From NCBI GenBank assembly GCA_964575755.1, contig CAZNRH010000001.1, positions 17,100-81,099 on the forward strand: 64,000 nucleotides of DNA. Reading direction: 5' to 3'. A program made the position numbers and the translations under genes. This DNA comes from an uncultured Candidatus Saccharibacteria bacterium. GTDB lineage: Bacteria > Patescibacteriota > Minisyncoccia > Phycocordibacterales > JABMNX01. How positions within the stretch are numbered: position 1 is the stretch's first letter; each line of letters begins with the position of its first letter. The notes under the pieces were generated by a model. The model had not been told where the DNA came from. It worked only from the letters and a program-made list of their open reading frames with translations, and did no database searches. Shown here piece by piece: positions 23,513 through 48,029 of this stretch.

Positions 23513-25750
23513 ATGTTACAGTTATATCTAATGCAAATTGAGAAAATATTACGAAAGTTCGTGACGTGGGGCATATTCCTCGTGCCGTTTATACCTCTTA
23601 TAGTCTCATCCTTCTTATTCTTCCCATTTATCACAGGAAAGAATTTTGCGTTTCGTATTATAGTCGAATTACTATTTGGTGGCTGGCTCGCACTCATACT
23701 TTATAACAGGTCTTATCGCCCTAAATTCTCATGGCTTCTAGCATCAATAGCCATATTTGTAGGTATTATAGCTGTCGCTGATATAACAGGAGAGAATCCC
23801 CTTAAGAGTATTTGGAGCAATTTCGAGCGCATGGAAGGTCTTGTCACACTCGTACACCTCTTTATGTATTTCCTTGTAGCGGGATCTGTTCTTAATACTG
23901 AAAAGCTATGGACAAGGTTCTTAAACACGTCCGTTTTTGTAAGTGGTCTACTCGGTATCTATGGTCTTTTCCAACTTCTGGGACGTTTTGATATTCATCA
24001 AGGGAGTGTGAGACTAGACGCAACACTAGGTAATGCTACATATTTTGCCATCTACATGTTCTTCCATGTATTTATAACTACGTTCTTATTACTTCGCTGG
24101 AAGGGAAGTCGTTATGTCTCATATATATATGGTGGACTTATCGCACTTCAGGTCGCAATGATATATTTCACTGCAACACGAGGTACCATCCTCGGACTTC
24201 TTGGTGGGGTAACTCTCTCTGGTCTACTCATCGCCATTTTCGGTGGCCGGACCGCTGGAAACACAGGAGAGGTTGGAGAAAATAATAACAAGCTTAGAAA
24301 AATAGCCATCGGTGCAATTATTGGTGTCTTAGTAATAGTCAGCGGATTCTTTTTAATAAAAGACACAGACTTTGCAAAAGATAGCCCAGTACTTAGCAGG
24401 TTTACTGGCATATCTCTTTCAGAGGGGACTGTACAAGCACGGTTCTTAATTTGGAGCGTTGCAATGAAGGGAGTAAAAGAGCGACCTATTCTAGGTTGGG
24501 GTCAAGAAAACTTCAATTTTGTATTTAATAAATACTACAAGTCAGAGCTGTATGCTCAAGAGCAGTGGTTCGACAGGGTACACAACTTCGTATTCGATTG
24601 GCTTATAGCCGGAGGTGTTCTTGGTTTACTCGCTTACGTATCAATGTTCCTAGCCACACTCTTTTATTTATGGAGAAAGAAAAACACGTTCTTTTCAATT
24701 AATGAAAAAAGTATTTTCACTGGACTTCTTGCCGGCTACACGTTTCACAATCTTTTTGTATTCGATAATATAGTAAGCAGTATTCTTTTCTTTACCATAA
24801 TGGCTTTTGTGTATTGGACGTATAAAGAAAGTACGAGGGTGTTGTATATGGAAGATATAGAAGACAATTTAGATAAGAGTATGATCTCACGTATCTACGT
24901 ACCTATAATAATAATTCTTACCATTTTTTCAGTATATGTAGTCAATAGTAAAGGCATATTAACTGCAAAAACATTACTAAATGCAATTTCAATACCTGCG
25001 GGTCATCCAGACCAAATACCTTTACTTAAAAAAGCACTTTCATATAATTCATATGGAGATCAAGAAATACGTGAACAGTTAGGAATGCTTTCTACACGTA
25101 TTGCTGGGAGTCAACTTGATATAACAATAAAACAAGAATACCTTACTCTTTCTGTTACAGAGATGCAGAAGCAGATTGAAAAAGTAGATAATGACGCACG
25201 TACACAAATATTTACAGGGACACTTTTAGATTCGTTTGGGCAATATGATACAGCAAGAGTGTATATTAATAGAGCAAACGAACTTTCTCCTAACAAACCA
25301 ACTATATTATTTCAGCTAGGACTCAACACACTTAATAGGGGAGACATAGCTGGAGCACTTGAAGTATTCAAGCATGCATATGACATAGCACCACAATATG
25401 AACAAGCACAAATCTTTTATGCAATAGGGGCTATTTATGCAAGGGACGAAAAGTTACTTGAGGAAATTCTTGTACCAGTGTACGGGTCTGTAATAGTTGA
25501 TAACGACAGATTACTTCAGGCGTATTTCAATACCAAACAGTTAGATAAAGCTCTTGGTATATGGCAACTTCGTGTAGAGAGTAAGCCTAATGATCCACAA
25601 TCACACGTAGGGCTTGCTGCAGTGTACTTAGAGCTCAATAGACGGGTAGAAGCAGAACAAGAAATACAAAAAGCGATAGATCTAGACCCAAACTTCAAAG
25701 AACAAGGCGAATATTACATTAGTGAAATAAAAGCTGGCAGGAATCCATAA
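23513..25750 (+). CDS. O-antigen ligase/polymerase-like membrane protein with C-terminal TPR repeats
   Basis: N-terminal ~430 aa polytopic region with a Wzy_C-like segment (ATRGTILGLLGG). C-terminal ~250 aa TPR-like repeats. Confidence 0.55.
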   Translation: MLQLYLMQIEKILRKFVTWGIFLVPFIPLIVSSFLFFPFITGKNFAFRIIVELLFGGWLALILYNRSYRPKFSWLLASIAIFVGIIAVADITGENPLKSIWSNFERMEGLVTLVHLFMYFLVAGSVLNTEKLWTRFLNTSVFVSGLLGIYGLFQLLGRFDIHQGSVRLDATLGNATYFAIYMFFHVFITTFLLLRWKGSRYVSYIYGGLIALQVAMIYFTATRGTILGLLGGVTLSGLLIAIFGGRTAGNTGEVGENNNKLRKIAIGAIIGVLVIVSGFFLIKDTDFAKDSPVLSRFTGISLSEGTVQARFLIWSVAMKGVKERPILGWGQENFNFVFNKYYKSELYAQEQWFDRVHNFVFDWLIAGGVLGLLAYVSMFLATLFYLWRKKNTFFSINEKSIFTGLLAGYTFHNLFVFDNIVSSILFFTIMAFVYWTYKESTRVLYMEDIEDNLDKSMISRIYVPIIIILTIFSVYVVNSKGILTAKTLLNAISIPAGHPDQIPLLKKALSYNSYGDQEIREQLGMLSTRIAGSQLDITIKQEYLTLSVTEMQKQIEKVDNDARTQIFTGTLLDSFGQYDTARVYINRANELSPNKPTILFQLGLNTLNRGDIAGALEVFKHAYDIAPQYEQAQIFYAIGAIYARDEKLLEEILVPVYGSVIVDNDRLLQAYFNTKQLDKALGIWQLRVESKPNDPQSHVGLAAVYLELNRRVEAEQEIQKAIDLDPNFKEQGEYYISEIKAGRNP

Positions 25751-26089: not shown

Positions 26090-27103
26090 ATGGAAATCCA
26101 AAAAGACGTTTCTTTAAAAGAATTTACGACATTTCGTATCGGCGGTTCTGCCGATTTTTTTGTTTGTGTACAAAGCGTCAGTGAGTTAAAAAAGGCTATT
26201 ACCTATGCACAAGAACATACATTAAAAGTTTTCATACTAGGTAGTGGTTCAAATATAGTTTTTAAAGACGAAGGATTTAGAGGACTTGTTATAAAAATAG
26301 AAATAAAAGGAGTAGTGTGCAACAACACAAAAGGTGACGGTGTTATTTTAGAAGTTGGAGGAGGTGAGGTATTTGATGAACTCATTTCATATTGTGTTAA
26401 GAATAATTATTATGGACTCGAAAACCTTTCTGCAATACCAGGAACTGTTGGCGCATCTCCAGTCCAAAATATTGGAGCATATGGAGTAGAAGTAAAAGAT
26501 TTAATAAAATACGTAGACACGATTAACATACATACATGCAAAACAAAAAGATTTACAAAAAGTGAATGTAAGTTTGTATATAGAGACAGTTTCTTTAAAA
26601 CAGAAAAAGGTAAAGAGTACGTGATTATTCATGTGTGTTTCAAATTAAAAAAACAAAATAAATTAAATCTCTCATACTCTGATCTAGCAAAATATTTTAG
26701 AGAGAATAAAGCCACCTCATTAACTGAGGTACGAGAAGCCATTATTAATATCAGAAGAAACAAGTTTCCAGATCTAGACAAAGTAGGAACTGCAGGCTCA
26801 TTCTTTAAGAACCCCATTGTTACAGATATAGAATACAGTGCACTACAAGGGCAATTTGAGTCTATTCCATCGTATAGAAGCAGTGTTGGGTATGTGAAGA
26901 TACCTCTTGGTTTTATCCTTGAAAAGTTAGGATGGAAAGGTAGAGAGTACAAACAATTATGTATTTATGATAAACAAGCTTTAGTTATTGTTAATAAAAA
27001 AAATGCCACAGCGAAACAATTAAATGAATTATCAAACATGATAGAAAAAGACGTTATGGAAAAGACGGGAATTAAAATTGAGAAAGAAGTTACTTTTGTA
27101 TAA
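26090..27103 (+). CDS. murB: UDP-N-acetylenolpyruvoylglucosamine reductase
   Basis: FTTFRIGGSADFF, ILGSGSNIVF and LSAIPGTVGASPVQNIGAYGVEV are MurB FAD-binding motifs. Confidence 0.85.
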   Translation: MEIQKDVSLKEFTTFRIGGSADFFVCVQSVSELKKAITYAQEHTLKVFILGSGSNIVFKDEGFRGLVIKIEIKGVVCNNTKGDGVILEVGGGEVFDELISYCVKNNYYGLENLSAIPGTVGASPVQNIGAYGVEVKDLIKYVDTINIHTCKTKRFTKSECKFVYRDSFFKTEKGKEYVIIHVCFKLKKQNKLNLSYSDLAKYFRENKATSLTEVREAIINIRRNKFPDLDKVGTAGSFFKNPIVTDIEYSALQGQFESIPSYRSSVGYVKIPLGFILEKLGWKGREYKQLCIYDKQALVIVNKKNATAKQLNELSNMIEKDVMEKTGIKIEKEVTFV

Positions 27104-27112
27104 ATAGTTATC

Positions 27113-27229
27113 GAAATAACTTTTAAAAAAATAATTATTTTAATTCTGAAATAACTTTCAAAATTTTAAGACTTTTTGTTTTAAAATAATTTTGAAATAA
27201 CTTTCTAAATATTTATTTAGAAAGTTATC
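27113..27229 (+). promoter_or_regulatory. Three direct copies of GAAATAACTTT plus an inverted copy, upstream of the H1-like gene
   Basis: cgaaataacttt (27113), gaaataactttc (27148), gaaataactttc (27194), inverted gaaagttatcc (27219), in an AT-rich spacer. Confidence 0.3.
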
Positions 27230-27371
27230 CACAAAAATATTTTATAATGAATTGTGTTTGCATACTTCGCGTTCGATAATATAAGTAACTTCTCTAACGC
27301 GTTACAACTATTTCTTTTGTACAAAAGGGAAGACGTGGTCGTTATTACTCAAACTATTTAAATCAAACTTC

Positions 27372-27560
27372 ATGGCAGCAAAAAAACGAAAAGTTGCAAA
27401 ACGAAAAGTTGCAAAGCGAAAGCCAGCAAAACGTAAAGCAGCAAAGAGGAAGCCTGCAAAGCGTAAAGCAGCTAAACGAAAGCCTGCAAAGCGTAAGGCA
27501 GCAAAAAGGAAGCCTGCAAAGCGTAAGGCAGCAAAAAGGACCACCCGACGACGACGATAG
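27372..27560 (+). CDS. Lysine/alanine-rich histone H1-like (Hc1/AlgP-tail-like) DNA-binding protein
   Basis: 62 aa of KRK(P/V)AK(R)KAA decapeptide repeats. Built from ~30-nt tandem DNA repeats. The two antisense ORFs are low complexity and are rejected. Confidence 0.55.
   Translation: MAAKKRKVAKRKVAKRKPAKRKAAKRKPAKRKAAKRKPAKRKAAKRKPAKRKAAKRTTRRRR
27399..27545 (+). repeat. Tandem ~30-nt repeats (aaacg[a/t]aagc[c/a]gcaaagcg...) encoding the KRKPAKRKAA units
   Basis: Visible periodicity: gcaaaacgtaaagcagcaaagaggaagcct / gcaaagcgtaaagcagctaaacgaaagcct / gcaaagcgtaaggcagcaaaaaggaagcct. Confidence 0.6.
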
Positions 27561-27751
27561 ATAGTCCTTTTGCAAGACTATTTTTAACAGAAACTCCCCA
27601 AAAGGTCAAATAAGAATCATATTGGTACTGATTTGACCTAATTGTAGGAGTTTTTGTTGTCTATGGGTGTATTATTAACAGCCACTTATGCAAGTAATTT
27701 TTTACATAAAAACAGGCTCTTGGGGCGTATCTATGATATTATTGTCATCGT

Positions 27752-30286
27752 ATGATTTTTCTAAAAAAACTGTTTACAGTAGACGAACACAAGAAAGAGC
27801 TCAAAAAGCTTAGTCCTATTGTTGAAAAAATTAATGGACTTGAGGAGTCTTTTAGTGTTCTTTCTGATTCAGATTTAAAAAACAAAACGGAAGAGTTTAA
27901 AAAGCGCCTTATGGAGGGTGAGTCATTAGACGACATACTTCCAGAAGCATTTGCCGCAGTAAGAGAAGCCGCTAAGAGAACACTTGATCAAAGACATTTC
28001 GATGTACAACTTCTTGGGGGTATTACCTTACATAAGGGAAATATTTCAGAAATGAGAACAGGAGAAGGAAAGACTCTTGTAGCAACACTCCCTGCATATT
28101 TGAACGCATTGTCAGGCCTTGGGGTGCATGTAGTTACAGTAAACGACTACCTTTCAAGACGTGACGGCGTTTGGATGGGACAGATTTATACATTTCTAGG
28201 TTTGTCGGTTGGTGTAATAAACCAAGAATCTTCTTTCCTGTATGACAAGACAATCACACAGGATACAAAAGAAGACGAAGAGCGTGACGAATTAGGTTCA
28301 TTTAAAGTCGTGCATGAGTTTTTACGTCCAAGTACAAGGAGAGAGTCATATGAGGCAGACATAACATACGGCACAAACAACGAATTTGGTTTTGATTATC
28401 TTCGCGACAATATCGAATACGAAACAAGTTCACTACGACAACGTGGACACAATTTCGTAGTAGTAGATGAAATAGACTCTATTTTAATAGACGAAGCGCG
28501 GACACCTTTAATCATCTCAGCACCTACAGCAGATCCAGAAAACCTGTATGCAATGTTTGCAGGAATAGTAGCTAATCTTAAAATAGAAGAAGACTTTGTT
28601 GTAGATGAGAAACAAAAGGCTATTTCACTAACAGATACAGGAATAGAAAAAACAGAAAAGATATTAGGTATAGATAATATTTACACAGATAAAGGAGTGA
28701 AGTATGTACACCACCTAGAAACTGCAGTTCGAGCTAAGGCACTATTTGATAAAGATAAAGAATATGTCGTAAAAGACGATGAGGTCGTTATTGTAGATGA
28801 GTTTACAGGGCGGCTTCAGCCAGGACGTCGTTGGTCTGAGGGCCTCCATCAGGCGATAGAAGCAAAAGAAGGCGTGTCAGTTCAAAAAGAATCACGTACA
28901 TTCGCATCTATTACATACCAAAACTATTTCAGACTATACAACAAGCTTGCAGGTATGACAGGTACAGCGCTCACATCTTCAGAAGAGTTTTATAAAGTGT
29001 ACGGTCTTACAGTGGTATCAATACCAACCAATGTAGATCCAAAGAGATTAGACCAAGAAGATCTAATCTATCAGAGTGAAGTAGGAAAGTTTAAAGCAAT
29101 AGCCAAGAAAGTAAAAGAGCTCAACAAAGAAGGTCAACCAGTACTTATAGGTACAGTATCAATAGAGAAAAATGAATTACTCAGTTCTTTTCTTAAAAAA
29201 GAAGGAGTACAGCATAAAACATTAAATGCAAAGAACCACGAAAACGAAGGAGAAATCATCGCGCAGTCAGGAAGTAAGGGTAATGTAACCATAGCCACAA
29301 ACATGGCAGGGCGCGGAGTCGATATCAAACTTGGTGGAAACCCAGGTGGAGAAGAAGAATATGAGGAAGTAAAAAAGCTCGGCGGGCTCTTTGTACTCGG
29401 CACAGAGCGCCATGAAGCACGGCGTATAGACAACCAATTACGTGGACGTTCAGGAAGACAGGGTGACCCAGGAGAAACTCAGTTTTTTGTTTCCCTAGAA
29501 GACTCACTTATGCGAGTGTTCGCTTCAGATATGATTAAGCGTATGATGGGGCGTTTTGGCATACCAGAAGATCAACCAATAGAAAATAAAATGATTACGC
29601 GTTCGCTTGAGTCAGCACAGACAAAGATAGAAGGTTTTCATTTTGATTCACGAAAACACGTACTGCAGTATGACGACATTTTAAATCAACAAAGAACAAT
29701 TATATATAAAAGAAGAAGGGGAATATTACAAGGAGAAAAAAACGATGTATTACTTGCTATAGACAGTGTTATAGGGGGAGATACACACCTACTTAAAACA
29801 GTTGGAGATAAAAAAGAGTTGTTAGGGGAAGACGAGTTTGTTTCTACAGTACGAAGAATGCTGCTGCAAACAATCGATATGCTGTGGGTAGAGCATCTTG
29901 AGATGATGGATTACATGCGTTCAAGTGTAAATCTACGTGCATATGGTCAGCGCGACCCACTTGTAGAATACAAAAAGGAGGGATTGCGTATGTTTAAAGA
30001 GATGGAAGAGTCATACAAACATCAAATCAGAAGCGTATTACCGAATATCGGTGTAAACGCATTCGTAAAAGAAGAACAGAAAATGAAAGAAGTCCACGAT
30101 AGTGCAAAACTAATCAGTAGTAACGTACAAAAGAACGGCCCAACTGATCCTTTAAAGAATACAAATAAAATAGGTAGAAACGACATGGTTACAATTACAG
30201 ACGGTAAAGATACAAAAGAAATGAAGTACAAAAAAGCACAACATCTTATAGAAAGTGGCGAGTGGAGTATAAAAAATGAAGAGTGA
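27752..30286 (+). CDS. secA: Preprotein translocase ATPase SecA
   Basis: MRTGEGKTLVATLPAYLNAL Walker A, DEAD-like helicase motifs, LGGLFVLGTERHEARRIDNQLRGRSGRQGDPG. No C-terminal zinc finger. Confidence 0.95.
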   Translation: MIFLKKLFTVDEHKKELKKLSPIVEKINGLEESFSVLSDSDLKNKTEEFKKRLMEGESLDDILPEAFAAVREAAKRTLDQRHFDVQLLGGITLHKGNISEMRTGEGKTLVATLPAYLNALSGLGVHVVTVNDYLSRRDGVWMGQIYTFLGLSVGVINQESSFLYDKTITQDTKEDEERDELGSFKVVHEFLRPSTRRESYEADITYGTNNEFGFDYLRDNIEYETSSLRQRGHNFVVVDEIDSILIDEARTPLIISAPTADPENLYAMFAGIVANLKIEEDFVVDEKQKAISLTDTGIEKTEKILGIDNIYTDKGVKYVHHLETAVRAKALFDKDKEYVVKDDEVVIVDEFTGRLQPGRRWSEGLHQAIEAKEGVSVQKESRTFASITYQNYFRLYNKLAGMTGTALTSSEEFYKVYGLTVVSIPTNVDPKRLDQEDLIYQSEVGKFKAIAKKVKELNKEGQPVLIGTVSIEKNELLSSFLKKEGVQHKTLNAKNHENEGEIIAQSGSKGNVTIATNMAGRGVDIKLGGNPGGEEEYEEVKKLGGLFVLGTERHEARRIDNQLRGRSGRQGDPGETQFFVSLEDSLMRVFASDMIKRMMGRFGIPEDQPIENKMITRSLESAQTKIEGFHFDSRKHVLQYDDILNQQRTIIYKRRRGILQGEKNDVLLAIDSVIGGDTHLLKTVGDKKELLGEDEFVSTVRRMLLQTIDMLWVEHLEMMDYMRSSVNLRAYGQRDPLVEYKKEGLRMFKEMEESYKHQIRSVLPNIGVNAFVKEEQKMKEVHDSAKLISSNVQKNGPTDPLKNTNKIGRNDMVTITDGKDTKEMKYKKAQHLIESGEWSIKNEE

Positions 30287-33638: not shown

Positions 33639-34304
33639 ATGAGGAAGATTATTTTTGCACAAGGTGAATATTACCACCTCTTTTGTCGAGGAAATAACAA
33701 ACAAACCATATTTCGAGATAATCGTGATAAGATACGTTTTTTATTTCTTATTTTAAATTTCCAATCTCCGATGACACATAATAACTTAGGGCGTTATGTC
33801 AATAATTATGTTAAAGATTCAACTTTTAATATAAAAGACGAGGATATTGATACCATGATTGAAGATAGATATGTTGAATTAGTTAGCTTTGCGTTAATGC
33901 CTAATCACTTTCATCTTATTGTTAAAGAAGTCGAAGATAAAGGAGTATCTCAATACATGCATAGAGTATTGACTTCATACACTAAGTATTTTAATGCCAA
34001 ACATGAGCATACAGGACATTTATTTCAAGGCTCATATGGAGCTGTACATGTCAGCGATAATGAACAACTGCTTTATTTGTCAGCATACATACATAGAAAT
34101 CCTCGAGATATAAAAAAGTGGTTTAATAAAGAAAGAGAGTACTACTGGTCAAGCTATCAAGATTATATTAATAAAAATCGTTGGGGTAAATTACTTGAGA
34201 ACAGCATAATAATAGATCAATTTAAAGACGGTAAAGATTACGATGGGGAAGTACAACAAAGCGGAGCAAAAGAATTACTTGATGAGAAACACACAATAAT
34301 TTAA
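33639..34304 (+). CDS. IS200-like / REP-associated tyrosine transposase (RAYT-like, HUH Y1)
   Basis: GEYYHLFCRGNNKQTIF N-terminus, HuH motif MPNHFHLIV, catalytic-Tyr region QLLYLSAYIHRNP. Paralog of 47358-48029. Confidence 0.6.
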   Translation: MRKIIFAQGEYYHLFCRGNNKQTIFRDNRDKIRFLFLILNFQSPMTHNNLGRYVNNYVKDSTFNIKDEDIDTMIEDRYVELVSFALMPNHFHLIVKEVEDKGVSQYMHRVLTSYTKYFNAKHEHTGHLFQGSYGAVHVSDNEQLLYLSAYIHRNPRDIKKWFNKEREYYWSSYQDYINKNRWGKLLENSIIIDQFKDGKDYDGEVQQSGAKELLDEKHTII

Positions 34305-35850: not shown

Positions 35851-35957
35851 CTTAAAAGTTTATATAAATCAAAGCCAGTTCGCCTATACGGAGTCTGTTT
35901 ATTGTTATTATTTACAATCCCCACACACAATCTTTTTTACGTTGTTGTATCGTTTAT

Positions 35958-37232
35958 GTGGAGTATAATATGTATATGAAAAGTTTAACTATAGAAGGAA
36001 AGAAATTTATCTCGTCAAAACAAGCTGCCGAGATTATGGGGTACACCCAAGACTACATCGGCCAGCTTGCGCGTAGTGGTAAAATCTCGGCACAACGCGT
36101 AGGAGGAGTTTGGTATATAGACGAGTCAGAACTTTCTGGACAATCTTCTAATATCTCTAAAGAAAACATAAAAAAAGGAAAATTTATAGATAATTTATTT
36201 TACAAAAATAAAAACGATATAGTTAGTGAGATAGACGTTAAAAATCTATTGGATGCCAATAAAAGTAAAAAAGAAAACATAACCTTCGAAGGTGTGGATT
36301 ATATCTCGTCAAAACAAGCTGCCGAGATTATGGGGTACACCCAAGACTACATCGGCCAGCTTGCGCGTAGTGGTAAAATCTCGGCTAGGCAAATAGGAAG
36401 GGGTTGGTATATACCACGATCAGTAGTGGATAAGAAAACCACTGAAAACAAAAATAATCCAATAACTTCATTCCAAGTAAATGAACAGGAAGAAATAGTG
36501 GAGACTCTTACTATTAACAAAGAAGTTAATAACGCTAACATAAGTACAAAATCAAAAGAGCAACAGAGTATAGTAGCTATCAGTAAGCCAAAAACCCCTC
36601 AAAAAGAGGTGTTTAATGACATGGTTACATTTCATGACAATAAAGATAGTAGAGGCGTAGAAAAAGAGTTACATGGATCTACTAAGATACATATAAACAA
36701 GAGAGAACAGCCCTTAATAAGCAAGAGGAACAAAGACGACTATTACTACCCATCTTTTTTAAGTGCTTCATATTCTTTAGATGATACACCGTTGGTTCCT
36801 ACACCAATGCGTTCACGAGAACCTGTACTTCATAAAATAGTAACAGGAGAGAGGAATGAAGTAGAAAAACATATAAAAGAAAGACAGCTGAACAGAGAAG
36901 ATAATAGTTTGTATTCAAAAAAAGTAATAAAAGATACCCTAAAACCCAAAAGACAGTCGTTGATGCAAAAATCACCAATGTCACTCATAAAAATCGCTTC
37001 ACTGGCGACTACTGTGGTTGTTGTTGCCTCAATCGTTACATTTATACCCCATACATCTGTATTTAGCTCTAGTACAAGCACTCTAAAGACGGTTTTCTTA
37101 TTTAAGACACCAGATAGTGGTAGTACTTTAAAGGCTGAAGTTACTCAATCTATACCAGATTCATTAATGGAGAGAATGATAGGTGTATTCAGTAGCTTTA
37201 CTGAAGAGAAAATAGAATATAATTCTAAATAA
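35958..37232 (+). CDS. Protein with two tandem excisionase-type HTH (HTH_17-like) domains, a low-complexity linker and a C-terminal TM anchor
   Basis: FISSKQAAEIMGYTQDYIGQLARSGKISA(Q/R)(R/Q)(V/I)G(G/R)(V/G)WYI occurs twice. A hydrophobic segment MSLIKIASLATTVVVVASIVTFIP lies near the C-terminus. Confidence 0.45.
   Translation: MEYNMYMKSLTIEGKKFISSKQAAEIMGYTQDYIGQLARSGKISAQRVGGVWYIDESELSGQSSNISKENIKKGKFIDNLFYKNKNDIVSEIDVKNLLDANKSKKENITFEGVDYISSKQAAEIMGYTQDYIGQLARSGKISARQIGRGWYIPRSVVDKKTTENKNNPITSFQVNEQEEIVETLTINKEVNNANISTKSKEQQSIVAISKPKTPQKEVFNDMVTFHDNKDSRGVEKELHGSTKIHINKREQPLISKRNKDDYYYPSFLSASYSLDDTPLVPTPMRSREPVLHKIVTGERNEVEKHIKERQLNREDNSLYSKKVIKDTLKPKRQSLMQKSPMSLIKIASLATTVVVVASIVTFIPHTSVFSSSTSTLKTVFLFKTPDSGSTLKAEVTQSIPDSLMERMIGVFSSFTEEKIEYNSK
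36008..36091 (+). repeat. 84-nt direct repeat, copy 1 (identical copy at 36302-36385), inside the 35958 gene
   Basis: tatctcgtcaaaacaagctgccgagattatggggtacacccaagactacatcggccagcttgcgcgtagtggtaaaatctcggc appears twice, 294 nt apart and in frame. Confidence 0.8.
36302..36385 (+). repeat. 84-nt direct repeat, copy 2
   Basis: Identical to 36008-36091. Confidence 0.8.
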
Positions 37233-37518
37233 TATATAATTATCGTATTTAAACGCCATCTCGTTAAAACGAGGTGGTGTTTTGTATCAGTATAAGAAGA
37301 TTATCCAATACTACTAACTTTATACATGTTAGTACGACCTAGTTTGTAGTTCGTCAGTCCAGACTATCTTTACTTTAAAACATTTTTTATTATTTTAATT
37401 TTCTTGTTCTCTTAATATTTATTAAAAGACAAATCTAAAAGACTTTTCCACAAACAAAAAGACATGTCCTTAAGAAAATGTTGTAGAATGTAGTTAAATC
37501 GTGTTAGCGACCATAGGT

Positions 37519-40500
37519 ATGAGTAAAGAAGTTTTTTTCAATAACAAAAAATATTTATCTTCTAAAGATGCCGGCAATCAGGCTGGTTATACTCACGACT
37601 ATATTTCTAGATTATGTCGAGAGAGGAGAATCCCAGGTGAGAAAGTGGGTGGATCTTGGTATGTAGAGGCTGAACCTTTCTTCATTTTTTTGGATGAACA
37701 AAAAAATAAAAAAAGTGAAAGTAATAAGAACTTATCAAAAGAGTGTAAGCAGAATTATAAAAAGACAACTGAAGAATATGAGGAACAAGTAATGTCACGT
37801 TTAGAATTACCAGAATTCCCAAAATATCTTTTACAAGAAGTAACAGCTGTAGTAATTTCTATTGTTTTAGTTTTTGGTGTGTACTTCGCAAAAGATTCTT
37901 TGTATGTTCGAGATGTAATTGATTCATCACAATCAAACATTTCTAGAATTTATGAAGACACAAATGATTCCGTAAATACATTCAGAGAATTATTTACATA
38001 TAAAAATATTGCAAATAGCACATTGAAAGTTGTTACATCAGGAAGCAATATTATCGAACAAGGGTTAGTTCGTTATTATTCTTTTATTAATACTTCTGGA
38101 GAAGTAGTTGTGGCAACTTCACACAAAGTAAAAGAAATAAAAAGACAAGTTACTGTTGAGAATATTAAAACTACCACCACAAATAAGGTTACTAAAATCG
38201 TTGCCCTTGTTTCTGAAAGGGTAAAAAAATTAAACCAAGATATAAAAAACGTAGCGCATAAAATCAAATATACATTTACAAAAGAAAATACATTGACTTT
38301 AGTATCTTCTACTAAAAATTACATAGTGTCATCTGCGAGCTCTGCGGTATTTAACACACAGTTAGCTATGACAAGCGCCCAAGGAGCACTTATAAGTGCC
38401 CCAGAGTTTATCGGACGATTTATCGAGGGTATCAGGGTGCGTTTAGTTAGTTGGCTTAACGTCAATGATGTTAAAACACCTTTTGCCACTGTTACTGAAA
38501 AAGACGATACCGCAGTATTAATAACCCAACCAACTATAAAAAGAGTAATAGAGACACAGCATGTAGTAGTACAGTCAGGTATAACGGAGTCGTTTGTATT
38601 AACTAAGCTAGAACAGTTAAACAACAAGCTAAAGTCAGAAATCTATAAACTCTCTTCAATAAACGCAGGTAATATCGTCAACAACTACAATGTAATCTCT
38701 CAAACTAACAAGATAGATAAACTTAAAGGGGTTGCAATCACAGGGTCTACGTTTACTGACGGTACTATTAGTGGAAGTACATCATTTTCTGGTACAACAG
38801 GCTCTTTCAGTGGAGCGGTATCAGTAGCATCACTTACCGTAACAGGAGATACAACCTTGAGTGGAAGCCTTTCATTAGGTGGACTTACTGTAGATACCGC
38901 AGGGCTTGTATATCTCTCCTCCTCATCAAATGTTGGAATTGGTACATCGACACCATACGCAAAACTTTCGGTTGTGGGTCCAGTAGTAGGAGAGTATTTT
39001 CACGCCACATCAACCACCGCCACCTCAACCTTTGCAGGAGCTCTCCTAGTAACTCGTGCACCAACAGTAGCCCACACATTTTCGTCATGGGTTACGGGCG
39101 CTTCAAACTCAGCACTCTTTGACGCTTCTCTTGTCATTAATCCAACTACAGCTACAGCAGACTCTAACTTAATTTCTGCAGCAGTGGGTGGCTCCGTACG
39201 TTTCTTAGTAGACGCAGAAGGTGACGTATTCGTGAAAAATCTTACTTCAGTTGGTTCTGTAACATTGTCCACCACATCTGCATCCTCTTTTACTGTTGAG
39301 GGTAATACAACATTGGGGGATGCAATCACAGACACCACAACAATCAATGGAACACTCACGGTTACTGGTGCGACAAGTGTATCAACAGTTGATGGAAACT
39401 TCGGAGTCGGAACTACGTCCCCGTGGGCACGCCTTTCAGTATCTGGTGTTGCAGGTGCAAGTACACCTCTGTTTTCAATCTCTACCACAACAGCAGGCAA
39501 CGCAACAAGTACTGCCATCTTTGTTGATGAAAACGGAAAATTTGGTATCGGTACTACATCACCATTCGCACAGCTCTCGGTGGCGGGCAACGGACTCTTT
39601 AGTGGTACACTCACGACTACCAATCTAATAGCAAGCAGTATTTCTACATTGAACTCACTTTCTTTAACTGGTCTCGCTACATTTACAAATGGATTTATTT
39701 CACAAGCTTCCTCAACCATCTCAAGTGGTGGACTCACAACAGTTGGTTACTCCACAACAACCAAAGCACTTGTTGTACAAGGTGCCTCGGCAACTTCAAC
39801 ATTCGCAGGCGGTCTTGCAGTAGAAACCTCAGGATTTGTGTACGATTACAGTACGAATAGAGTTGGAATTGGTACCACTTCACCACTAGCCAAGCTCGAT
39901 ATATACGGCGACATAATTTTGTCAGGGACAGACAGACACTTAAACTTTGGTGATACATCAGGAACAAATGGTTACGGTTTCCGTGACAACTCAGGCACAA
40001 TGCAATTCAAAGACTCAGCAGGAGCATGGGCTGCTTTTGGTTCAGGAGGAGGTTCAGACATTTTTTCTCTAACAGACGCAACAACAGTAGAAGCAACCAC
40101 AACAAATGCAGGCATCAGTCTTAAATTAGATTACTTCACTGCCACTTCAACAACCGCAACTTCAACCTTTGCCGGCGGTCTTGCAATTGAAACATCAGGA
40201 TTAGTCTATGATTATTCTACTGGAAATGTTGGTATAGGTACTGCGAGTCCAACACAAGCTCTTGATGTTGGAAGCGGTAACATAACCACTACAGGCACAC
40301 TAGCGGCTGGTGCGACGACACTTAATGGTCAGACAATAGTTGGTGGGACAGGTTCTGTATCTGTAGGTAGTTTGGTTGGTGAATTACAGGTTCAAAAAAC
40401 TGGGACAAATGTAGCCGCATTTTCTGCTTATGAAAACTTTACTAGTGGCGCAGGTCTTGTTCTCGGCCATTCTCGTGGGACATCTATAGGTGCATTTAAT

Positions 40501-41451
40501 ACCGTTATTACAGGAGATGGAGTTGGACATATTGATTTTGCAGCAGCTGACGGAACAGACTTAAATAATCTAGCTGCAAGTATCCTTGTATCTGTTGAGG
40601 GTACAATAGCAGGGAACAGGACTCCAGGTAAGATTGAGTTCCAAACAGGAGCTGATGCTGCTGGCTCCGCACTTACCACCGCCCTCACCCTAGACTCCAG
40701 TCAGAACTCTACGTTTGCTGGTACCATAGGTTCTGACATAATAACTATTACATCAGCAAGTGACCAAAAACTTATACTTGCTGGTTCAGCTTCTCCTAGG
40801 TTAACTCTGACACCAACTAGCGGGGATGAATTTAGCATTCAAAACAACACAGGAGTCTTAAAATTCACAAATAATACAGATAGCGACAGGGTTGATTTAA
40901 CGATAGATGGAGATGGCAATGTTGGCATTGGAACTTCAACCCCATGGGGCAAGCTTTCAGTTGAGATGGACACAGTAAACCCTTCATTTGTAGTATCAAA
41001 TCAAGGCTCATCAACTCCAGCACTATACATAAGTGGAGTAAACCAAGATGGAGTTATTGGTATTGGTACAAAAGGAGGCTCAGGCAGGCGACTTGATGTA
41101 TTTGACGCTGGGAATCCTCAGCTTCGTCTATCGCAGACGAGCAGTATCTTCACGAACTTCCAAGTCGCCGCATCAACAGGAGACCTCACGATTGACCTTA
41201 ATCCAAACACAAGCGCGACAGATATATACATGACGCAAACAGGCGGTACTACTGGCGCAAACCTGCGTGTATGTGAAGGAACAGCATGTCCAAGTGTAGT
41301 AATCAATAACGGTGGTAATGTGCTTGTAGAAAACGCAGTCTATTTTGGCAACGGCTTCCGCATAGACCAAGTAGTAGGCACAACCACAGAGATAGCGGTC
41401 TACGGTGTAACATCAACCACAACCCCAATCATCATTTTTGATGAGTTCTAG
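37519..41451 (+). CDS. Giant membrane-anchored protein: N-terminal excisionase-type HTH, single TM, ~1180-aa extracytoplasmic Thr/Ser/Gly-rich region with tail-fibre-like (V/I)GIGT(T/S)SP.AKL.V repeats
   Basis: KKYLSSKDAGNQAGYTHDYISRLCRERRIPGEKVGGSWYV (HTH_17-like), TM LLQEVTAVVISIVLVFGVYFA, then at least seven copies of the GIGTTSP(W/F/L)A(K/R/Q)L(S/D)V motif and duplicated FAGGLA(V/I)ETSG(F/L)VYDYST blocks. Start may be the TTG/GTG at 37501. Confidence 0.5.
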   Translation: MSKEVFFNNKKYLSSKDAGNQAGYTHDYISRLCRERRIPGEKVGGSWYVEAEPFFIFLDEQKNKKSESNKNLSKECKQNYKKTTEEYEEQVMSRLELPEFPKYLLQEVTAVVISIVLVFGVYFAKDSLYVRDVIDSSQSNISRIYEDTNDSVNTFRELFTYKNIANSTLKVVTSGSNIIEQGLVRYYSFINTSGEVVVATSHKVKEIKRQVTVENIKTTTTNKVTKIVALVSERVKKLNQDIKNVAHKIKYTFTKENTLTLVSSTKNYIVSSASSAVFNTQLAMTSAQGALISAPEFIGRFIEGIRVRLVSWLNVNDVKTPFATVTEKDDTAVLITQPTIKRVIETQHVVVQSGITESFVLTKLEQLNNKLKSEIYKLSSINAGNIVNNYNVISQTNKIDKLKGVAITGSTFTDGTISGSTSFSGTTGSFSGAVSVASLTVTGDTTLSGSLSLGGLTVDTAGLVYLSSSSNVGIGTSTPYAKLSVVGPVVGEYFHATSTTATSTFAGALLVTRAPTVAHTFSSWVTGASNSALFDASLVINPTTATADSNLISAAVGGSVRFLVDAEGDVFVKNLTSVGSVTLSTTSASSFTVEGNTTLGDAITDTTTINGTLTVTGATSVSTVDGNFGVGTTSPWARLSVSGVAGASTPLFSISTTTAGNATSTAIFVDENGKFGIGTTSPFAQLSVAGNGLFSGTLTTTNLIASSISTLNSLSLTGLATFTNGFISQASSTISSGGLTTVGYSTTTKALVVQGASATSTFAGGLAVETSGFVYDYSTNRVGIGTTSPLAKLDIYGDIILSGTDRHLNFGDTSGTNGYGFRDNSGTMQFKDSAGAWAAFGSGGGSDIFSLTDATTVEATTTNAGISLKLDYFTATSTTATSTFAGGLAIETSGLVYDYSTGNVGIGTASPTQALDVGSGNITTTGTLAAGATTLNGQTIVGGTGSVSVGSLVGELQVQKTGTNVAAFSAYENFTSGAGLVLGHSRGTSIGAFNTVITGDGVGHIDFAAADGTDLNNLAASILVSVEGTIAGNRTPGKIEFQTGADAAGSALTTALTLDSSQNSTFAGTIGSDIITITSASDQKLILAGSASPRLTLTPTSGDEFSIQNNTGVLKFTNNTDSDRVDLTIDGDGNVGIGTSTPWGKLSVEMDTVNPSFVVSNQGSSTPALYISGVNQDGVIGIGTKGGSGRRLDVFDAGNPQLRLSQTSSIFTNFQVAASTGDLTIDLNPNTSATDIYMTQTGGTTGANLRVCEGTACPSVVINNGGNVLVENAVYFGNGFRIDQVVGTTTEIAVYGVTSTTTPIIIFDEF

Positions 41452-43464: not shown

Positions 43465-46400
43465 ATGCCATTAGGAGCAGAATTCAGAGGACTACTTGGA
43501 ACTGCTGGAACCTCCAGTAGCTCTTTCGTGATTCCACAATCAATCCGCTTTAACGACAACGACTTAGCATATATGTCCAGGACACCTTCAGTGGCCGGTA
43601 ACCGCAAGACATGGACTTGGAGTGGTTGGGTTAAACGTGGGAGTTTAGGAGGTTCCCAAGTAATATTTGGTGCTGGTGCGAACAGTTCTGATAGAGCTTT
43701 ATTTTATTTCAGTGGGGACAATCCTACATTTATTATAAGTGCTGCGTCAGTTAATATAGGGTTTATAAAGACTACACAAGTATTACGAGATCCTTCAGCG
43801 TGGTATCATCTTGTTCTTGTTGTTGATACAACTCAAGCTACAGCGGCTAATAGATTAAAGATGTATATAAACGGGGAGCAAGTAACATCGCTTTCTACTG
43901 CAACATATCCAGCTCAGAATACAGATACTTATATCAATTACACAGAAATTCATAGGATAGGTAGTGATTCCGCAACCATCTCAAGTCTTATGGATGGCTA
44001 CCTCGCAGACGTACACTTCATTGATGGTTCTGCACTAGCCGCTTCCGACTTTGGTGAAACAGACGCTAACGGTAGTTGGGTTCCTATTGAGTTTGACAGT
44101 AGTGCTATCGCCGCAGAAACAGTCACCTCTAGTTACTGTACCAGTGCCGTTGATGCTACAGATAGCGCCTCTTACACATTCTCTAGCCAGTCTATTGGCA
44201 CAGCGACATCAGACAGAATAGTCGTAGTCACCACCGCGCAAGGTAACGTCGGTATGACTGTGGGTTCTCTGACCGTTGGAGGCATCAGTGCGACTGAGGC
44301 TATTGAAATAACTGAAAGCACTGGGTACGCCACTTCTGGGCAATGGTATGTACCAGTTCCAACAGGAACAACTGCTGACATAGTTGTTAATATTTCAGGT
44401 GGTACTGCATCAAGATGTGGTATCACAGTTCACGCAATATATGGCTCTAGTGGAAAGCCCTACGCAACAGCTTACGCTGAACAGGACTACCCTCTTATTC
44501 AATCCATCCAAGTTCCCGATAATGGGGTGATCATCGGCGCGTCAATGGTTAATTCCGGTGCGCCAACTGTCACTTGGACTAACCTCACTGAACGAGTTGA
44601 CGAAGTAATTGAGAGCGCCTCATCCTCACAATCTGTGGCTTCGGATGCATTTGCTACGGGCGGGTCAATAACTGTTACCTGCTCCCCTGCGTCAGATAAC
44701 CGTGAAGTGCTAACCCTAACTTCATGGGGCGCGGTAGGAGGCTACGGCACCAACGGCTTTTATATTGATGGGGCTGACAGTGCTAATCTTGGTTTAGATG
44801 TGAATGCAGTAACTAGCACGGCTTTAACAGTTACATTCACAGATAGCTCGGTAGATACATCAAACAGTACAGCCTACACATTTTCTTCTCAGGCAATCGG
44901 CGCAGCAGGAAGTGATCGTACTATTGTCGTTGCTACAAATGGTGAGGGTGGAGGCGCAAGTCGCTATGTCAGCACACTGACCATTGGCGGCGTAAGTGCA
45001 ACAAAAATAGTTTCTAGCTTATCAGAAAACCTCTATTGGCCTTGTGAGATGTGGAAAGCTGTCGTCCCAACAGGCACTACGGCGGATATTATCGTTACTT
45101 GGGATAGTAACATGTCTGAGTGTGGCTTAGGGGTGTGGGATGTTCGTAATATGGGGGGGGTGTTTTCTTCTGGTACAGATAGTACAGACCCCGGAAATAC
45201 CACCCTGTGGATACCTGCTGGTGGCGTTGGGATTGGTTCTATGAAAAGCGGTGGCGGGGTTGCATCGTACACTTGGACAGGATTAACCAAAGACTATGAT
45301 GAACTTGTTGACAGTGCGAACAATGGGTATCATTCAGGAGCCAGTATAACAAACGCAACGGCACAGTCTCTTGCTATTGAGGCCAACCCTTCCGGTGGTT
45401 CACAGTTTGCATTTTGTGCCGTGTCCTTTGTGATGGCAAATGATAATTCATTTGCCCCTTCCGGCCTGACAACTGCCGATCAAATGCTCGACAGCCCGAC
45501 CGATGATGCGGCGAATGGGATTGGCAATTACTGCACTTGGAACGTACTTAATAACTCGGGTCCAGGATACACATGGTCAAATGGCAATCTAAAGTCAACT
45601 TCGGATGCTCAAGGTCAGGACGGCGCATCTGGAACACTCCATGCTTCTTCTGGTAAATATTATTTTGAGTACACTGTCGACGCTATCGTAACTGGTGGAA
45701 CTGTATATGGAGTATGTACTGATGGTTGTGCGGCCTCTAGTGATATGGTTGACGGCACGGTCGCGGGTGGTATGGATCTTTATGGCGGTGGCGAAGTTTA
45801 TGGATACAGAGGAACCGGAGGAAAAGTTGATATTTCCTCCGACACAGCTTACGGGACTTCGTTCGTCGCTACTGATGTAATTGGCGTAGCTCTAGATTTA
45901 GATAATGGAATTATTTGGTTCAGTAAGAACGGCGCTTGGCAAGAATCTGCGACGCAGGGCGAGATCGAAGCAGGGACTACGACCAACGCAGCATTTACAT
46001 GGACCCCAGCTGGTCAGTTCTGGACTATTTGGATGCACGATTTTGGTGCAAATTCATCTGGCACTTTTAATGGGGGTCAATCAGGTTTTACGTATACCCC
46101 TCCAACAGGTTTCAAAGCTCTTTGTACCGCCAACCTCCCAGCCCCTACTATTACAGACCCTAGCGCCTACAATCAGACAGAACTCTTTACAGGTAATTCA
46201 GCCACAAATGTTATTACGTTTAGTGGTAACTCCACAATGCAACCAGACTTAGTATGGATTAAGCGACGGGATTGGTTAGGAAGTAACCATGTTATTACTG
46301 ATAGTGTTCGTGGTGTTACCAAGGAGATTAACTCGGACCTTACTAATGCAGAGTCCACGGAAGCTACTGGCTTAACTTCTTTTGATACAAATGGATTTAC

Positions 46401-47175
46401 TATTGGATCACATGGTGATTATAATACTAGTGGGAAGCTACAAGTAGCGTGGTGTTGGAAGGCAGGTGGCGCTGGCGTTTCAAACACTGACGGCTCCGTT
46501 ACATCAACTGTCAGTGCCGATACAACAAGTGGTTTCTCGATTGCCAAGTATACTGGGCTAGATGCTGCCATAACGGTCGGGCATGGACTATCAAGTGCTC
46601 CAGAATTCATAATAGTCCGTAATCTTTCGGCTGTTGCCAGTTGGGCTGTGTATCATAAAGATATGACAGGCGCAACCTACTACTTGACGCTTGACACAAC
46701 CGTAGCACAAGCTGGACCTGATGCTAGTATTTTTTCAGCCGCACCAACTGCTACTATCCTTAATATTGGGAACAGTATCAGAACAAGTCGCGCATCAGAG
46801 AACTTTATTGCTTATTCTTGGCACTCAGTTTCTGGCTTCTCCGCTTTTGGCACATACACAGGCAACGGTTTAGCAGATGGGCCTTTTGTTCATTGTGGTT
46901 TTAGGCCAGCGTTTATTATGATTAAAAACATAACTTCTGCTGGAAGTTGGAATTTGATAGATGTTAAAAGAGATAACTATAACGTTGTGTCAAGACGTTT
47001 ATTAGCACAAGCCCCTGATGTGGAAGTTACCGGGGGAACTTATATGGATATCACCTCAAATGGTTTCAAACGGCGTTCAACAAACTTCAACACGGACACA
47101 GAAATATATCTTTACGCAGCATTCGCAGAACACCCGTTCGGTGGTGATGGTGTCTCTCAAGCACGAGCACGGTAG
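43465..47175 (+). CDS. Giant (1236 aa) protein with an N-terminal LamG/concanavalin-A-like lectin domain and a long Thr/Ser/Gly/Ala-rich beta-repeat region
   Basis: FYFSGDNPTFIISAASVNIGF...WYHLVLVVDTTQATAANRLKMYINGEQV matches the LamG-like jelly-roll signature (W.HLv.v.d......lYvnG). No classical signal peptide. Preceded by a cataattcctaattc motif. GC visibly higher than the surrounding genes. Confidence 0.5.
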   Translation: MPLGAEFRGLLGTAGTSSSSFVIPQSIRFNDNDLAYMSRTPSVAGNRKTWTWSGWVKRGSLGGSQVIFGAGANSSDRALFYFSGDNPTFIISAASVNIGFIKTTQVLRDPSAWYHLVLVVDTTQATAANRLKMYINGEQVTSLSTATYPAQNTDTYINYTEIHRIGSDSATISSLMDGYLADVHFIDGSALAASDFGETDANGSWVPIEFDSSAIAAETVTSSYCTSAVDATDSASYTFSSQSIGTATSDRIVVVTTAQGNVGMTVGSLTVGGISATEAIEITESTGYATSGQWYVPVPTGTTADIVVNISGGTASRCGITVHAIYGSSGKPYATAYAEQDYPLIQSIQVPDNGVIIGASMVNSGAPTVTWTNLTERVDEVIESASSSQSVASDAFATGGSITVTCSPASDNREVLTLTSWGAVGGYGTNGFYIDGADSANLGLDVNAVTSTALTVTFTDSSVDTSNSTAYTFSSQAIGAAGSDRTIVVATNGEGGGASRYVSTLTIGGVSATKIVSSLSENLYWPCEMWKAVVPTGTTADIIVTWDSNMSECGLGVWDVRNMGGVFSSGTDSTDPGNTTLWIPAGGVGIGSMKSGGGVASYTWTGLTKDYDELVDSANNGYHSGASITNATAQSLAIEANPSGGSQFAFCAVSFVMANDNSFAPSGLTTADQMLDSPTDDAANGIGNYCTWNVLNNSGPGYTWSNGNLKSTSDAQGQDGASGTLHASSGKYYFEYTVDAIVTGGTVYGVCTDGCAASSDMVDGTVAGGMDLYGGGEVYGYRGTGGKVDISSDTAYGTSFVATDVIGVALDLDNGIIWFSKNGAWQESATQGEIEAGTTTNAAFTWTPAGQFWTIWMHDFGANSSGTFNGGQSGFTYTPPTGFKALCTANLPAPTITDPSAYNQTELFTGNSATNVITFSGNSTMQPDLVWIKRRDWLGSNHVITDSVRGVTKEINSDLTNAESTEATGLTSFDTNGFTIGSHGDYNTSGKLQVAWCWKAGGAGVSNTDGSVTSTVSADTTSGFSIAKYTGLDAAITVGHGLSSAPEFIIVRNLSAVASWAVYHKDMTGATYYLTLDTTVAQAGPDASIFSAAPTATILNIGNSIRTSRASENFIAYSWHSVSGFSAFGTYTGNGLADGPFVHCGFRPAFIMIKNITSAGSWNLIDVKRDNYNVVSRRLLAQAPDVEVTGGTYMDITSNGFKRRSTNFNTDTEIYLYAAFAEHPFGGDGVSQARAR

Positions 47176-47357: not shown

Positions 47358-48029
47358 ATGCGTAAAACACCTTTTATAAACGGAGAGTTTTATCATCTTT
47401 ACAATCGTGGTGTAGACAAAAGAAATACTTTTGAGGACCAAGAAGATGTTAATAGATTTTTTCAAAGTATGGAAGAATTTAATGTAGTCGAGCCAGTGGG
47501 GAGTATTTATGAAAATTCATTCAGAAAAAAGAACAAACTTGGAGGTCGAACCTCCAAGTTAGATAAGTTAGTAGAATTTGTTTGTTATTGTATTAATCCT
47601 AATCATTATCATTTTATAGTGTCGCAAACTAGAGACAACGGCATTAGTGAATTTATGAAAAGACTGTCAGGGGGATATACATATTATTTTAATAATAAAA
47701 ACAAAAGATCAGGATCCCTTTTTCAAGGTACATTTAAATCTGTTCACATAGACTCAAATGAGTACCTACTACATTTAAGTGCTTATGTAAATTTAAATAA
47801 CAAAGTACATAAACTTAATAGTTCATCCTATAAGTTAGTGAGATCAAGTTGGAATGAATATATAGAGAGGAATAAAAAAAGACAAGCTGATTTTTGCGAG
47901 AAAAGTATTGTTTTAGGTCAATTTAAAAACCCCTCAGAATATAAAGTTTTTGCAGAAAATTCTTTGAATGATATTTTATACCACAAGTCTCAGAAGGAAA
48001 TAGGGTCTCTAATTATAGAAAAATTATAA
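47358..48029 (+). CDS. IS200-like / REP-associated tyrosine transposase (RAYT-like, HUH Y1)
   Basis: GEFYHLYNRGVDKRNTF, HuH INPNHYHFIV, catalytic-Tyr region YLLHLSAYVNLN. Paralog of 33639-34304 and of the 5' fragment at 2-376. Confidence 0.6.
   Translation: MRKTPFINGEFYHLYNRGVDKRNTFEDQEDVNRFFQSMEEFNVVEPVGSIYENSFRKKNKLGGRTSKLDKLVEFVCYCINPNHYHFIVSQTRDNGISEFMKRLSGGYTYYFNNKNKRSGSLFQGTFKSVHIDSNEYLLHLSAYVNLNNKVHKLNSSSYKLVRSSWNEYIERNKKRQADFCEKSIVLGQFKNPSEYKVFAENSLNDILYHKSQKEIGSLIIEKL
47536..47560 (+). repeat. REP palindrome aacttggaggt-cga-acctccaagtt inside the transposase ORF (encodes KLGGRTSKL)
   Basis: Same family as the flanking palindromes. Lies in-frame within the CDS at a position where the paralog 33639 has unrelated sequence. 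Confidence 0.6.

Follow-up and report, generated by a model that had tools for sequence, protein, structure and literature searches.

Strongly basic proteins made of short repeats offer the closest described parallels to the small gene reported here. The chlamydial protein Hc1 (HctA) is controlled post-transcriptionally by a small RNA, an instance of the tight regulation of a potentially toxic DNA condenser. Hc1 and its counterpart Hc2 (HctB) are both rich in lysine and alanine, with pentapeptide repeats and a length polymorphism that follows repeat number, and for Hc2 the chlamydial work cited describes a length that varies by the number of lysine-rich pentamers (PMC2848022). Basic low-complexity repeats of Lys, Arg, Ala and Pro also occur in histone H1 tails, protamines, AlgP of Pseudomonas, BpH1 of Bordetella, the H1-like NCBIfam family NF038053 of Burkholderia and the tails of mycobacterial HupB/MDP1 and Ku. 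To reveal how a new case compares, we focused on a window of 64 kb (the whole stretch of DNA analysed; low GC content, ~37%) from a Patescibacteria (Candidate Phyla Radiation, CPR) genome of the Paceibacteria/Parcubacteria type, and on a Lys/Arg (K/R)-rich open reading frame (ORF) in it, at 27372-27560, which lies upstream of secA.

We propose, with a probability of about 0.5, that this small gene is a self-contained transcription unit encoding a domain-less polycation, a sequence-independent counter-ion and condenser of nucleic acid whose likeliest target is the chromosome.

The small gene and its family

The ORF runs on the plus strand from ATG to TAG and encodes the 62-amino-acid (aa) product MAAKKRKVAKRKVAKRKPAKRKAAKRKPAKRKAAKRKPAKRKAAKRKPAKRKAAKRTTRRRR, with 22 Lys, 15 Arg, 16 Ala, 4 Pro and no Asp or Glu. 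Lys and Arg make up 60% of the residues (37 basic), the predicted pI is ~12 and the mass is 7.2 kDa. The product is built from AKRK(V/P/A) pentapeptides, and the repeat is the whole protein; no other ORF of this kind was found in the window outside another gene's frame. A preliminary description of this DNA had reported a 62-aa Lys/Arg-rich ORF made of tandem repeats of 30 nucleotides (nt), and both were recovered, the repeats by Tandem Repeats Finder as 4.9 copies of a 30-nt period (27395-27540, 86% matches, 15-nt sub-period). In pairwise comparisons of the four AKRKPAKRKA units, all 25 of the 25 nucleotide differences were synonymous, including CGA to AGG (the Arg codons in the repeat are CGA, CGT and AGG). 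Because the units differ only synonymously, the ORF is syntenic with secA and the gene was recovered independently from metagenomes, the small ORF is a genuine protein-coding gene whose product is kept by purifying selection.

A K/R-rich ORF of at least 10 aa was detected directly upstream of secA, on the same strand, in 27 loci fetched via SecA alone, so the possibility raised in the preliminary description that the ORF is not conserved in relatives does not hold. The ORF is broken by a 100-N gap or a contig end in three further SecA-fetched loci, and no K/R-rich ORF was found upstream of secA in more distant CPR and non-CPR SecA loci. The metagenome-assembled genomes (MAGs) with SecA relatives carry the labels Kaiserbacteria, Nomurabacteria, Taylorbacteria and Paceibacterota, and the closest relative by SecA (90% identity) is the locus L002 (CAZVBS010000015). 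Scanning metagenomes for the promoter pattern described below added about 20 family members. The family statistics rest on 45 detected ORFs, one of which (L103) is a false positive. These ORFs are 12-88 aa long (median 33) and consist of 45% K, 22% A, 11% R, 7% V, 6% T and 4% P, with ~0.2% Leu, two acidic residues in total and no aromatic residues. The start MAAK is present in 22 of the 45, the secA-linked ORFs of relatives mostly open with MAAKK, an R/K run often stands at the C-terminal end, and no column of the protein alignment is invariant. In at least one locus (L083), a pilin-like gene, not secA, follows the family ORF.

Comparison of repeat number across relatives, as suggested in the preliminary description, revealed a difference between the window (62 aa) and L002 (88 aa). 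The 78 nt lie wholly in indels inside the repeat array and amount to 26 codons, as would result from five pentapeptide units of 15 nt and one further codon. The repeat had also been called hypervariable by slippage; length does differ between relatives, as the family range shows, but rapid turnover is not borne out, because a 14% divergence between units that is purely synonymous argues against very fast homogenisation of the array.

The repeat also breaks short-read assembly, since two loci (L006 and L008) have 100-N runs within the K-rich ORF and the Logan contig L001 stops at window position 27315, 57 nt short of the ORF. The family is thus probably under-represented in MAGs, whose assemblies break at the tandem repeat. 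A phmmer-type search with the 62-mer gave no match at E <= 1e-3, and a profile of 32 members gave best matches of only E >= 0.38, all to unnamed ORFs. Exact look-up in a collection of 15 billion sequences found neither the window protein nor ten relatives; the window SecA was likewise not on record, and the window MurB matched exactly only on a 1.3-kb Logan contig. Seven public catalogue entries (P0002, P0003, P0004, P0007, P0008, P0013 and P0015) are unnamed, without a Pfam domain, and carry false N-terminal extensions that are translated leader: the string '...VVDHHR...' is GGTCGATCATCAC read as protein. The micro-gene is missed by annotation, as gene callers either skip it or extend it through the leader. 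A literature search found no description of such proteins in CPR.

By composition, the product has the character of an H1-like or protamine-like polycation, which is a functional kind and not a homology family. The preliminary description had likened it to H1, Hc and AlgP proteins, and this likeness in kind stands, while membership in the families examined and a globular domain were not found. Against Pfam the 62-aa protein shows no domain at E <= 1, the linker histone H1 winged-helix domain (PF00538) is absent from it, the whole protein being repeat, and family members have no significant match in Pfam, NCBIfam or PDB. HC2 (PF07382) is the only recurring sub-threshold hit, in 5 of 31 family members (best E = 0.023); the window protein scores 9.8 bits (E = 1.1) against a cut-off of 40 bits, and 11.3 bits (E = 0.31) against the 80-bit cut-off of NF038053 (hist_H1_lk_Burk). 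Homology to HC2 cannot be claimed at scores so far below the cut-off, and as both membership tests fall short, "works like" is the most that can be said. The likeness to Hc2 and Hc1 extends to Lys/Ala-rich composition, pentapeptide repeats and length polymorphism; however, Hc2 is 165-237 aa long and comes from a different phylum, the regulation inferred here (a DnaA-box promoter and a cis-acting leader) differs from that of Hc2 and Hc1, and no developmental cycle is known here. The other H1-like proteins named above have or join a folded domain or are much longer, whereas here the repeat is the entire protein. The AKRKP/PAKRK repeats resemble the PAKKA and KPAA units given in PMC3553676 and PMC5974015. 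AlgP, itself H1-like, acts on and organises polyphosphate granules (PMC9239181), and composition alone therefore does not identify the target. These comparisons make it plausible that the micro-gene family, so far without description, is H1-tail-like or protamine-like in kind without being a member of a known family.

Promoter, leader and terminators

The features of the locus, with strand where assigned, are listed below.

23513-25750: gene for an O-antigen-ligase/TPR protein
26090-27103: murB, followed by a spacer of 268 nt to the small ORF
27104-27222, plus strand: AT-rich spacer after the murB stop, 22% GC, non-conserved
27223-27233, plus strand: AGTTATCCACA, containing the perfect DnaA-box consensus 9-mer TTATCCACA (27225-27233)
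27234-27251, plus strand: A/T-rich tract of 18 nt between box and -35, from the column consensus of 26 SecA-found loci
27252-27257, plus strand: putative -35 TTGTGT (family consensus aTTGt), supported by comparison between loci
27275-27280, plus strand: putative -10 GATAAT, 17 nt past the -35
27281-27371, plus strand: end of the -10 to the ATG, including the predicted ~85-nt 5' leader, with a transcription start inferred near 27285-27287
27284-27288 with 27345-27349: outer helix P1 of the leader, AGUAA with UUACU
27289-27295 with ~27327-27332: inner helix P2, CUUCUCU with GGGAAG
27337-27341: invariant-type GGUCG of the leader
27372-27560, plus strand: small K/R-rich ORF, followed by a spacer of 191 nt to secA
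27559-27660, plus strand: two terminator-like hairpins in tandem, the first small (27559-27583) with UUUUU after it, the second long (27585-27659)
27734-27754, plus strand: region of the secA extended -10, TGaTATTAT (27734-27742), 9 nt before the secA ATG (27752)
27752-30286, plus strand: secA
35916-37232: gene for a double-HTH_17 protein, with a degenerate box-like AATCCCCACA (35916-35925), -35 (35942-35947), -10 (35964-35969) and ORF (35970/35976-37232)

Upstream of the small ORF, the 26 SecA-found loci share a conserved order of an A-run, AGTTATCCACA, 18 A/T-rich nt, TTGTnT, 17 nt and GATAAT. In the family consensus the A/T-rich tract is a T-run followed by an A-run, which we take to resemble an UP element; in a generic promoter scan, the -35 TTGTGT fell below threshold. 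The 9-mer is an exact match to the DnaA box and is unique in the window. The 11-mer AGTTATCCACA was found exactly at the homologous position in 20 related loci and with one or two mismatches in 5 more, one per ~10-kb locus, and the box stands 51-52 nt from the best -10-like hexamer in 18 of the 26. With transcription assumed to start 6-8 nt after the -10, the box would span about -64 to -54, centred ~59 nt upstream of the predicted start, presumably the geometry of an upstream (class-I) activator site. Judged from these sequences, the box is the only conserved upstream cis-element besides the promoter parts; it overlaps what the preliminary description had called an inverted copy of its upstream repeat.

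The box site is not an origin of replication (oriC). An oriC at this place was rejected because only one box is present, GC skew is positive to either side and no dnaA signature was found within the window; the cumulative skew climbs across nearly the entire window, and at 27 kb no change of sign is seen. In other bacteria, the same search pattern picks up clusters of boxes near dnaA, dnaN, recF, rnpA and yidD. The protein N-termini of these oriC-type loci (dnaA-dnaN-recF-gyrB-gyrA or similar contexts) suggest that they come from other phyla.

DnaA is documented as a transcription factor (PMC13438810). The DnaA-box operators known from dnaA autoregulation and from the gidAB-parAB operon of Pseudomonas aeruginosa (PMC13438810) have the exact TTATCCACA in common with the window locus. 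They also share its placement upstream of the promoter, and in them DnaA regulates genes besides dnaA. Unlike those operators, a single box stands here at a fixed ~-59 in several unrelated promoters of one clade, and the window box has no nearby oriC.

The box also precedes the gene for a double-HTH_17 protein with a C-terminal membrane segment. Its homologues have the exact TTATCCACA upstream in three loci (L003, L007 and L025) and one-mismatch versions in two (L005 and L052), and in L003 the box-to--10 distance is the same as at the K-rich gene. LexA-like genes (N-terminus MLTPKQKQI..DYIKK...) are preceded by AGTTATCCACA in five metagenome loci (L105, L112, L123, L155 and L162), which were recovered with the fixed-distance pattern itself; the box lies 41-43 nt from an ATAAT -10, the same distance as at the K-rich gene, and the ATG is at +83 to +86. 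One of them, L123, comes from a Hainich 0.1-um groundwater sample.

This distribution would fit DnaA as a transcription factor and equally allows another factor, and the HTH_17 protein may be a co-regulated gene or the box-binding factor itself. In the strongest of the alternatives, which we consider possible at clearly less than even odds, the box would be the operator of a non-DnaA factor such as the membrane-anchored double-HTH_17 protein (35970-37232 in the window), with a small regulon consisting of the K-rich gene, the HTH_17 gene itself, the LexA-like genes and possibly pilins. In all six HTH_17 genes compared, the upstream 105 nt contain TTATCCACA or a form of it altered at one or two positions, each promoter has one box and not a cluster, and the constant spacing to the -10 hints at an activator dedicated to these promoters. 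However, the element is the exact, near-universal DnaA 9-mer, in many loci with its high-affinity flanks too (in our judgement, by the flanks of E. coli oriC boxes), and a 9-11-mer without palindromic symmetry is more in keeping with a protein that binds as a monomer, as DnaA domain IV does, than with the usual HTH factor, which binds as a dimer.

The predicted leader carries a motif shared by most of the family. GGTCG was detected in 40 of the 45 leaders, compared with a mean of 0.84 and a maximum of 5 after shuffling, and is the commonest 5-mer of this AT-rich region. In the RNA it stands at the 3' edge of a loop closed by a helix. The minimal leader is a simple hairpin, as in L101, GCAAUAAAU-auuuucGGUCG-GUUUAUUGC, with L137 and L088 similar, and larger forms have a second hairpin inserted in the loop. 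In the window, the 3' part of the leader is an unstructured A/U-rich stretch without a Shine-Dalgarno sequence. The sequence of the closing helix varies between loci, with a mean pairing of 6.9 bp for own strands versus 5.6 bp across loci, and none of 5000 permutations reached the observed value. An RNAalifold consensus of four close relatives yields the inner helix, with no double compensatory changes. Rfam gave no match at the gathering score and only chance-level matches at E <= 10, and a covariance model of the leader was not obtained because MAFFT could not keep GGTCG and helix in register. The hairpin probably sets mRNA stability or translation.

Such a leader is exceptional against the background of this genome, in which Shine-Dalgarno sequences are nearly lacking: even a weak Shine-Dalgarno-like 4-mer is present in only 8 of the 51 window genes. 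Many start codons (e.g., 394, 3267, 4491, 33639, 48143, 55207, 56750, 58602 and 27752) stand 6-12 nt past a TAnnAT -10-like hexamer, a pattern suggesting that mRNAs here are as a rule leaderless or nearly so.

Downstream of the ORF, the two terminator-like hairpins combine stem and U-run, together reach -35.5 kcal/mol (z = -4.39), and the 3' side of the long one runs into UUUUUGUUG. A generic terminator scan with stricter loop and GC rules reported none here. In relatives, GC-rich hairpins with T-runs occupy the same place and are followed by a separate secA promoter, with TGnTAnnAT in the same position as in the window, ~7-12 nt before the secA ATG. This placement implies that the secA mRNA would be leaderless or near-leaderless and independent of the small gene. 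Given the terminators and the separate secA promoter, the small gene is monocistronic, and its linkage with secA is conserved gene order and not an operon.

Proposed role and its alternatives

In the proposed mechanism, transcription would start near 27285-27287 at a promoter of the sigma-70 type (TTGTGT, 17 nt, GATAAT) that includes an UP-like tract. Through the single conserved DnaA-box sequence at about -64 to -54, production of the polycation may be linked to DnaA and to the state of replication, and the hairpin of the ~85-nt leader would display GGUCG, probably for control of mRNA stability or translation. The tandem terminators would end the transcript before secA, which appears to have its own promoter, and the polycation would neutralise or condense nucleic acid as a protamine or a histone H1 tail does. 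We favour a role at the chromosome because the promoter carries a DnaA box and the other genes with this box are DNA-related.

Several points weigh against this proposal. That the protein binds DNA, that DnaA binds the box and where transcription starts are all predictions, and the box could belong to another factor, such as the HTH_17 protein whose gene carries it. For a polycation of low complexity, RNA, ribosomes or polyphosphate would be no less suitable ligands than DNA. Family members of 12-15 aa are hard to picture as architectural nucleoid proteins, and look more like encoded polyamines. The AlphaFold single-sequence model of the 62-mer is one long helix (pLDDT 76, pTM 0.29) and uninformative. 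The window leader's own fold is not unusual (z = +0.26), and a scan for GGTCG with a closing helix of at least 8 bp is not specific, with 210 matches versus 255 in the reversed control.

A fuller version of the proposal would make the protein the "genetic protamine" of a clade of Paceibacteria, the main counter-ion of the nucleoid in these ultra-small cells, activated by DnaA in class-I fashion at the ~-59 box, sharing a DNA-centred regulon with the membrane-anchored HTH_17 protein, the LexA-like repressor and possibly pilins, and controlled through the GGUCG leader. We hold this combination of claims tentatively and think it rather doubtful as a whole.

Alternatively, the polycation may be tied to the ribosome or RNA, as a clade-specific small basic ribosomal protein or rRNA chaperone, with the structured leader as an autoregulatory mimic of the protein's rRNA site. 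The known proteins bS22, bL37, Thx and eL41 are likewise tiny, extremely basic and easily missed by annotation. CPR ribosomes lack some standard proteins, and the gene is laid out as ribosomal-protein genes typically are, with a promoter that looks strong and has an UP-like tract, a leader that is long and conserved, and a terminator of its own; the leader is, moreover, the exception in a genome of leaderless mRNAs. Small polybasic ribosomal proteins, however, have a fixed length and sequence with specific contacts, whereas this family is a pure low-complexity repeat of 12-88 aa in which no conserved alignment column was found. Such a polycation is unlikely to recognise a specific GGUCG hairpin, and the DnaA-box promoter points to DNA-related physiology. 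We consider a ribosomal role unlikely.

The preliminary description had placed control of the gene elsewhere, in an operator array of three direct copies and one inverted copy of GAAATAACTTT, spaced about 35-45 nt apart, in the spacer upstream. The three direct copies are exact (27113-27123, 27148-27158 and 27194-27204, with spacings of 35 and 46 nt), and the motif search that it had suggested located no other exact copy in the window; with up to one mismatch, there are 9 matches compared with 3.9 expected. The inverted copy is partial: AAAGTTAT at 27221-27228 matches 8 of 11 bases of the reverse complement and is part of the right arm of a perfect 15-nt palindrome (arms ATAACTTTCTAAATA at 27197-27211 and TATTTAGAAAGTTAT at 27214-27228), which overlaps AGTTATCCACA. 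The GAAATAACTTT copies form AT-rich hairpins, and palindromes drive the RNA fold of the spacer (z = -4.25). The local repeat structure is thus real, non-random and strain-specific. A reading of the repeats as weak DnaA boxes was rejected, the reverse complement of GAAATAACTTT matching the 9-mer at only 4 of 9 positions.

Outside the window, the array was found only in L001, the Logan contig, which is of the same strain; none of the other 200 compared loci has it at that position, and no GAAATAACTTT copy is present in L002. It falls in the least conserved part of the locus, as the stretch from murB stop to box is 70.7% identical to L002 with 27 gap positions, versus 89.9% and gap-free from box to ATG (149 nt), 81.9% over the first 900 nt of secA (60% at third codon positions) and 70.5% over the last 600 nt of murB. 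Since the closest relative lacks the 11-mer array, the comparison gives no support to a conserved operator array. That the copies nevertheless control the gene in this strain is very unlikely in our view: three exact copies in 92 nt with a partial inverted one are far beyond chance, and, AAAGTTAT being common to them and the extended conserved box, a factor that reads this half might conceivably bind them, but no other family locus has the array and its agreement with the DnaA 9-mer is as poor as stated above. The copies would more probably be strain-specific duplications, in reverse orientation, of AAAGTTAT, the 5' flank of the box, as the comparison suggests, and would lie outside the conserved control logic.

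In the same spacer, a hairpin AGTTAT-CGAA-ATAACT (27106-27121) followed by TTTT, with a second AGTTATC inside, stands right after the murB stop and may be a weak murB terminator. The sequence TTATCGAAA at 27108-27116 agrees with the DnaA box at 7 of 9 positions, which is chance level.

It is highly improbable that the functional product is chiefly RNA, a ~280-nt structured transcript with the GGUCG hairpin in which the ORF is secondary, or that the gene has a dual function. Conservation of the leader exceeds that of the coding DNA next to it, GGUCG is nearly invariant and the ORF can shrink to 12 codons, as this explanation would have it. On the other hand, the ATG-GCN-GCN-AAA start (the MAAK noted above), the frame and the K/R composition are conserved across members, the repeat units differ only synonymously and Rfam families give no match.

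The least probable explanation is a regulatory leader peptide for secA, either a monitor like SecM of E. coli (likewise encoded by a short ORF that directly precedes secA on the same strand) or a Lys/Arg-sensing attenuator, which the conserved position, a terminator 0-30 nt past the stop codon and members of only 12-19 aa would suit, and which was rejected on composition (the signal peptide or other hydrophobic segment and the arrest motif of SecM, which is not homologous, are lacking, as are aromatics and nearly all Leu), on the intervening terminators and on secA's own extended -10 for a near-leaderless mRNA; in addition, a pilin-like gene replaces secA in L083, purifying selection keeps long repeat arrays, and secA is not an amino-acid biosynthesis gene.

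Genomic setting and significance

Elsewhere in the window there are genes for glycosyltransferases, Obg, GatB, TatC, enzymes of glycolysis and the pentose-phosphate pathway, L25, a release factor and S2. The plus strand holds two paralogous IS200-like Y1 transposase genes (PF01797), at 33639-34304 and 47358-48029. A MazF/PemK-type toxin gene (4491-4904) sits inside a glycosyltransferase cluster. A 1316-aa ORF at 37501-41451 has no match in Pfam. The gene for a 1236-aa LamG/SPRY/DUF7483 protein (43465-47175) contains the most GC-rich stretch of the window (0.485 vs ~0.37).

For the family, these results indicate systematic under-counting, as the repeat fragments assemblies made from short reads and also leads annotation astray. 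In an organism whose mRNAs otherwise appear to be leaderless, the GGUCG leader stands as a candidate for a new cis-regulatory RNA, and the promoter offers a setting in which regulation of transcription by DnaA, or by another factor, can be tested in a minimal genome. CPR/Patescibacteria are among the smallest cells known and have very few recognisable regulators or nucleoid proteins. A conserved, apparently strongly promoted and unannotated micro-gene, whose 62-mer product can be synthesised, is a concrete candidate for a role in packing and neutralising their DNA.

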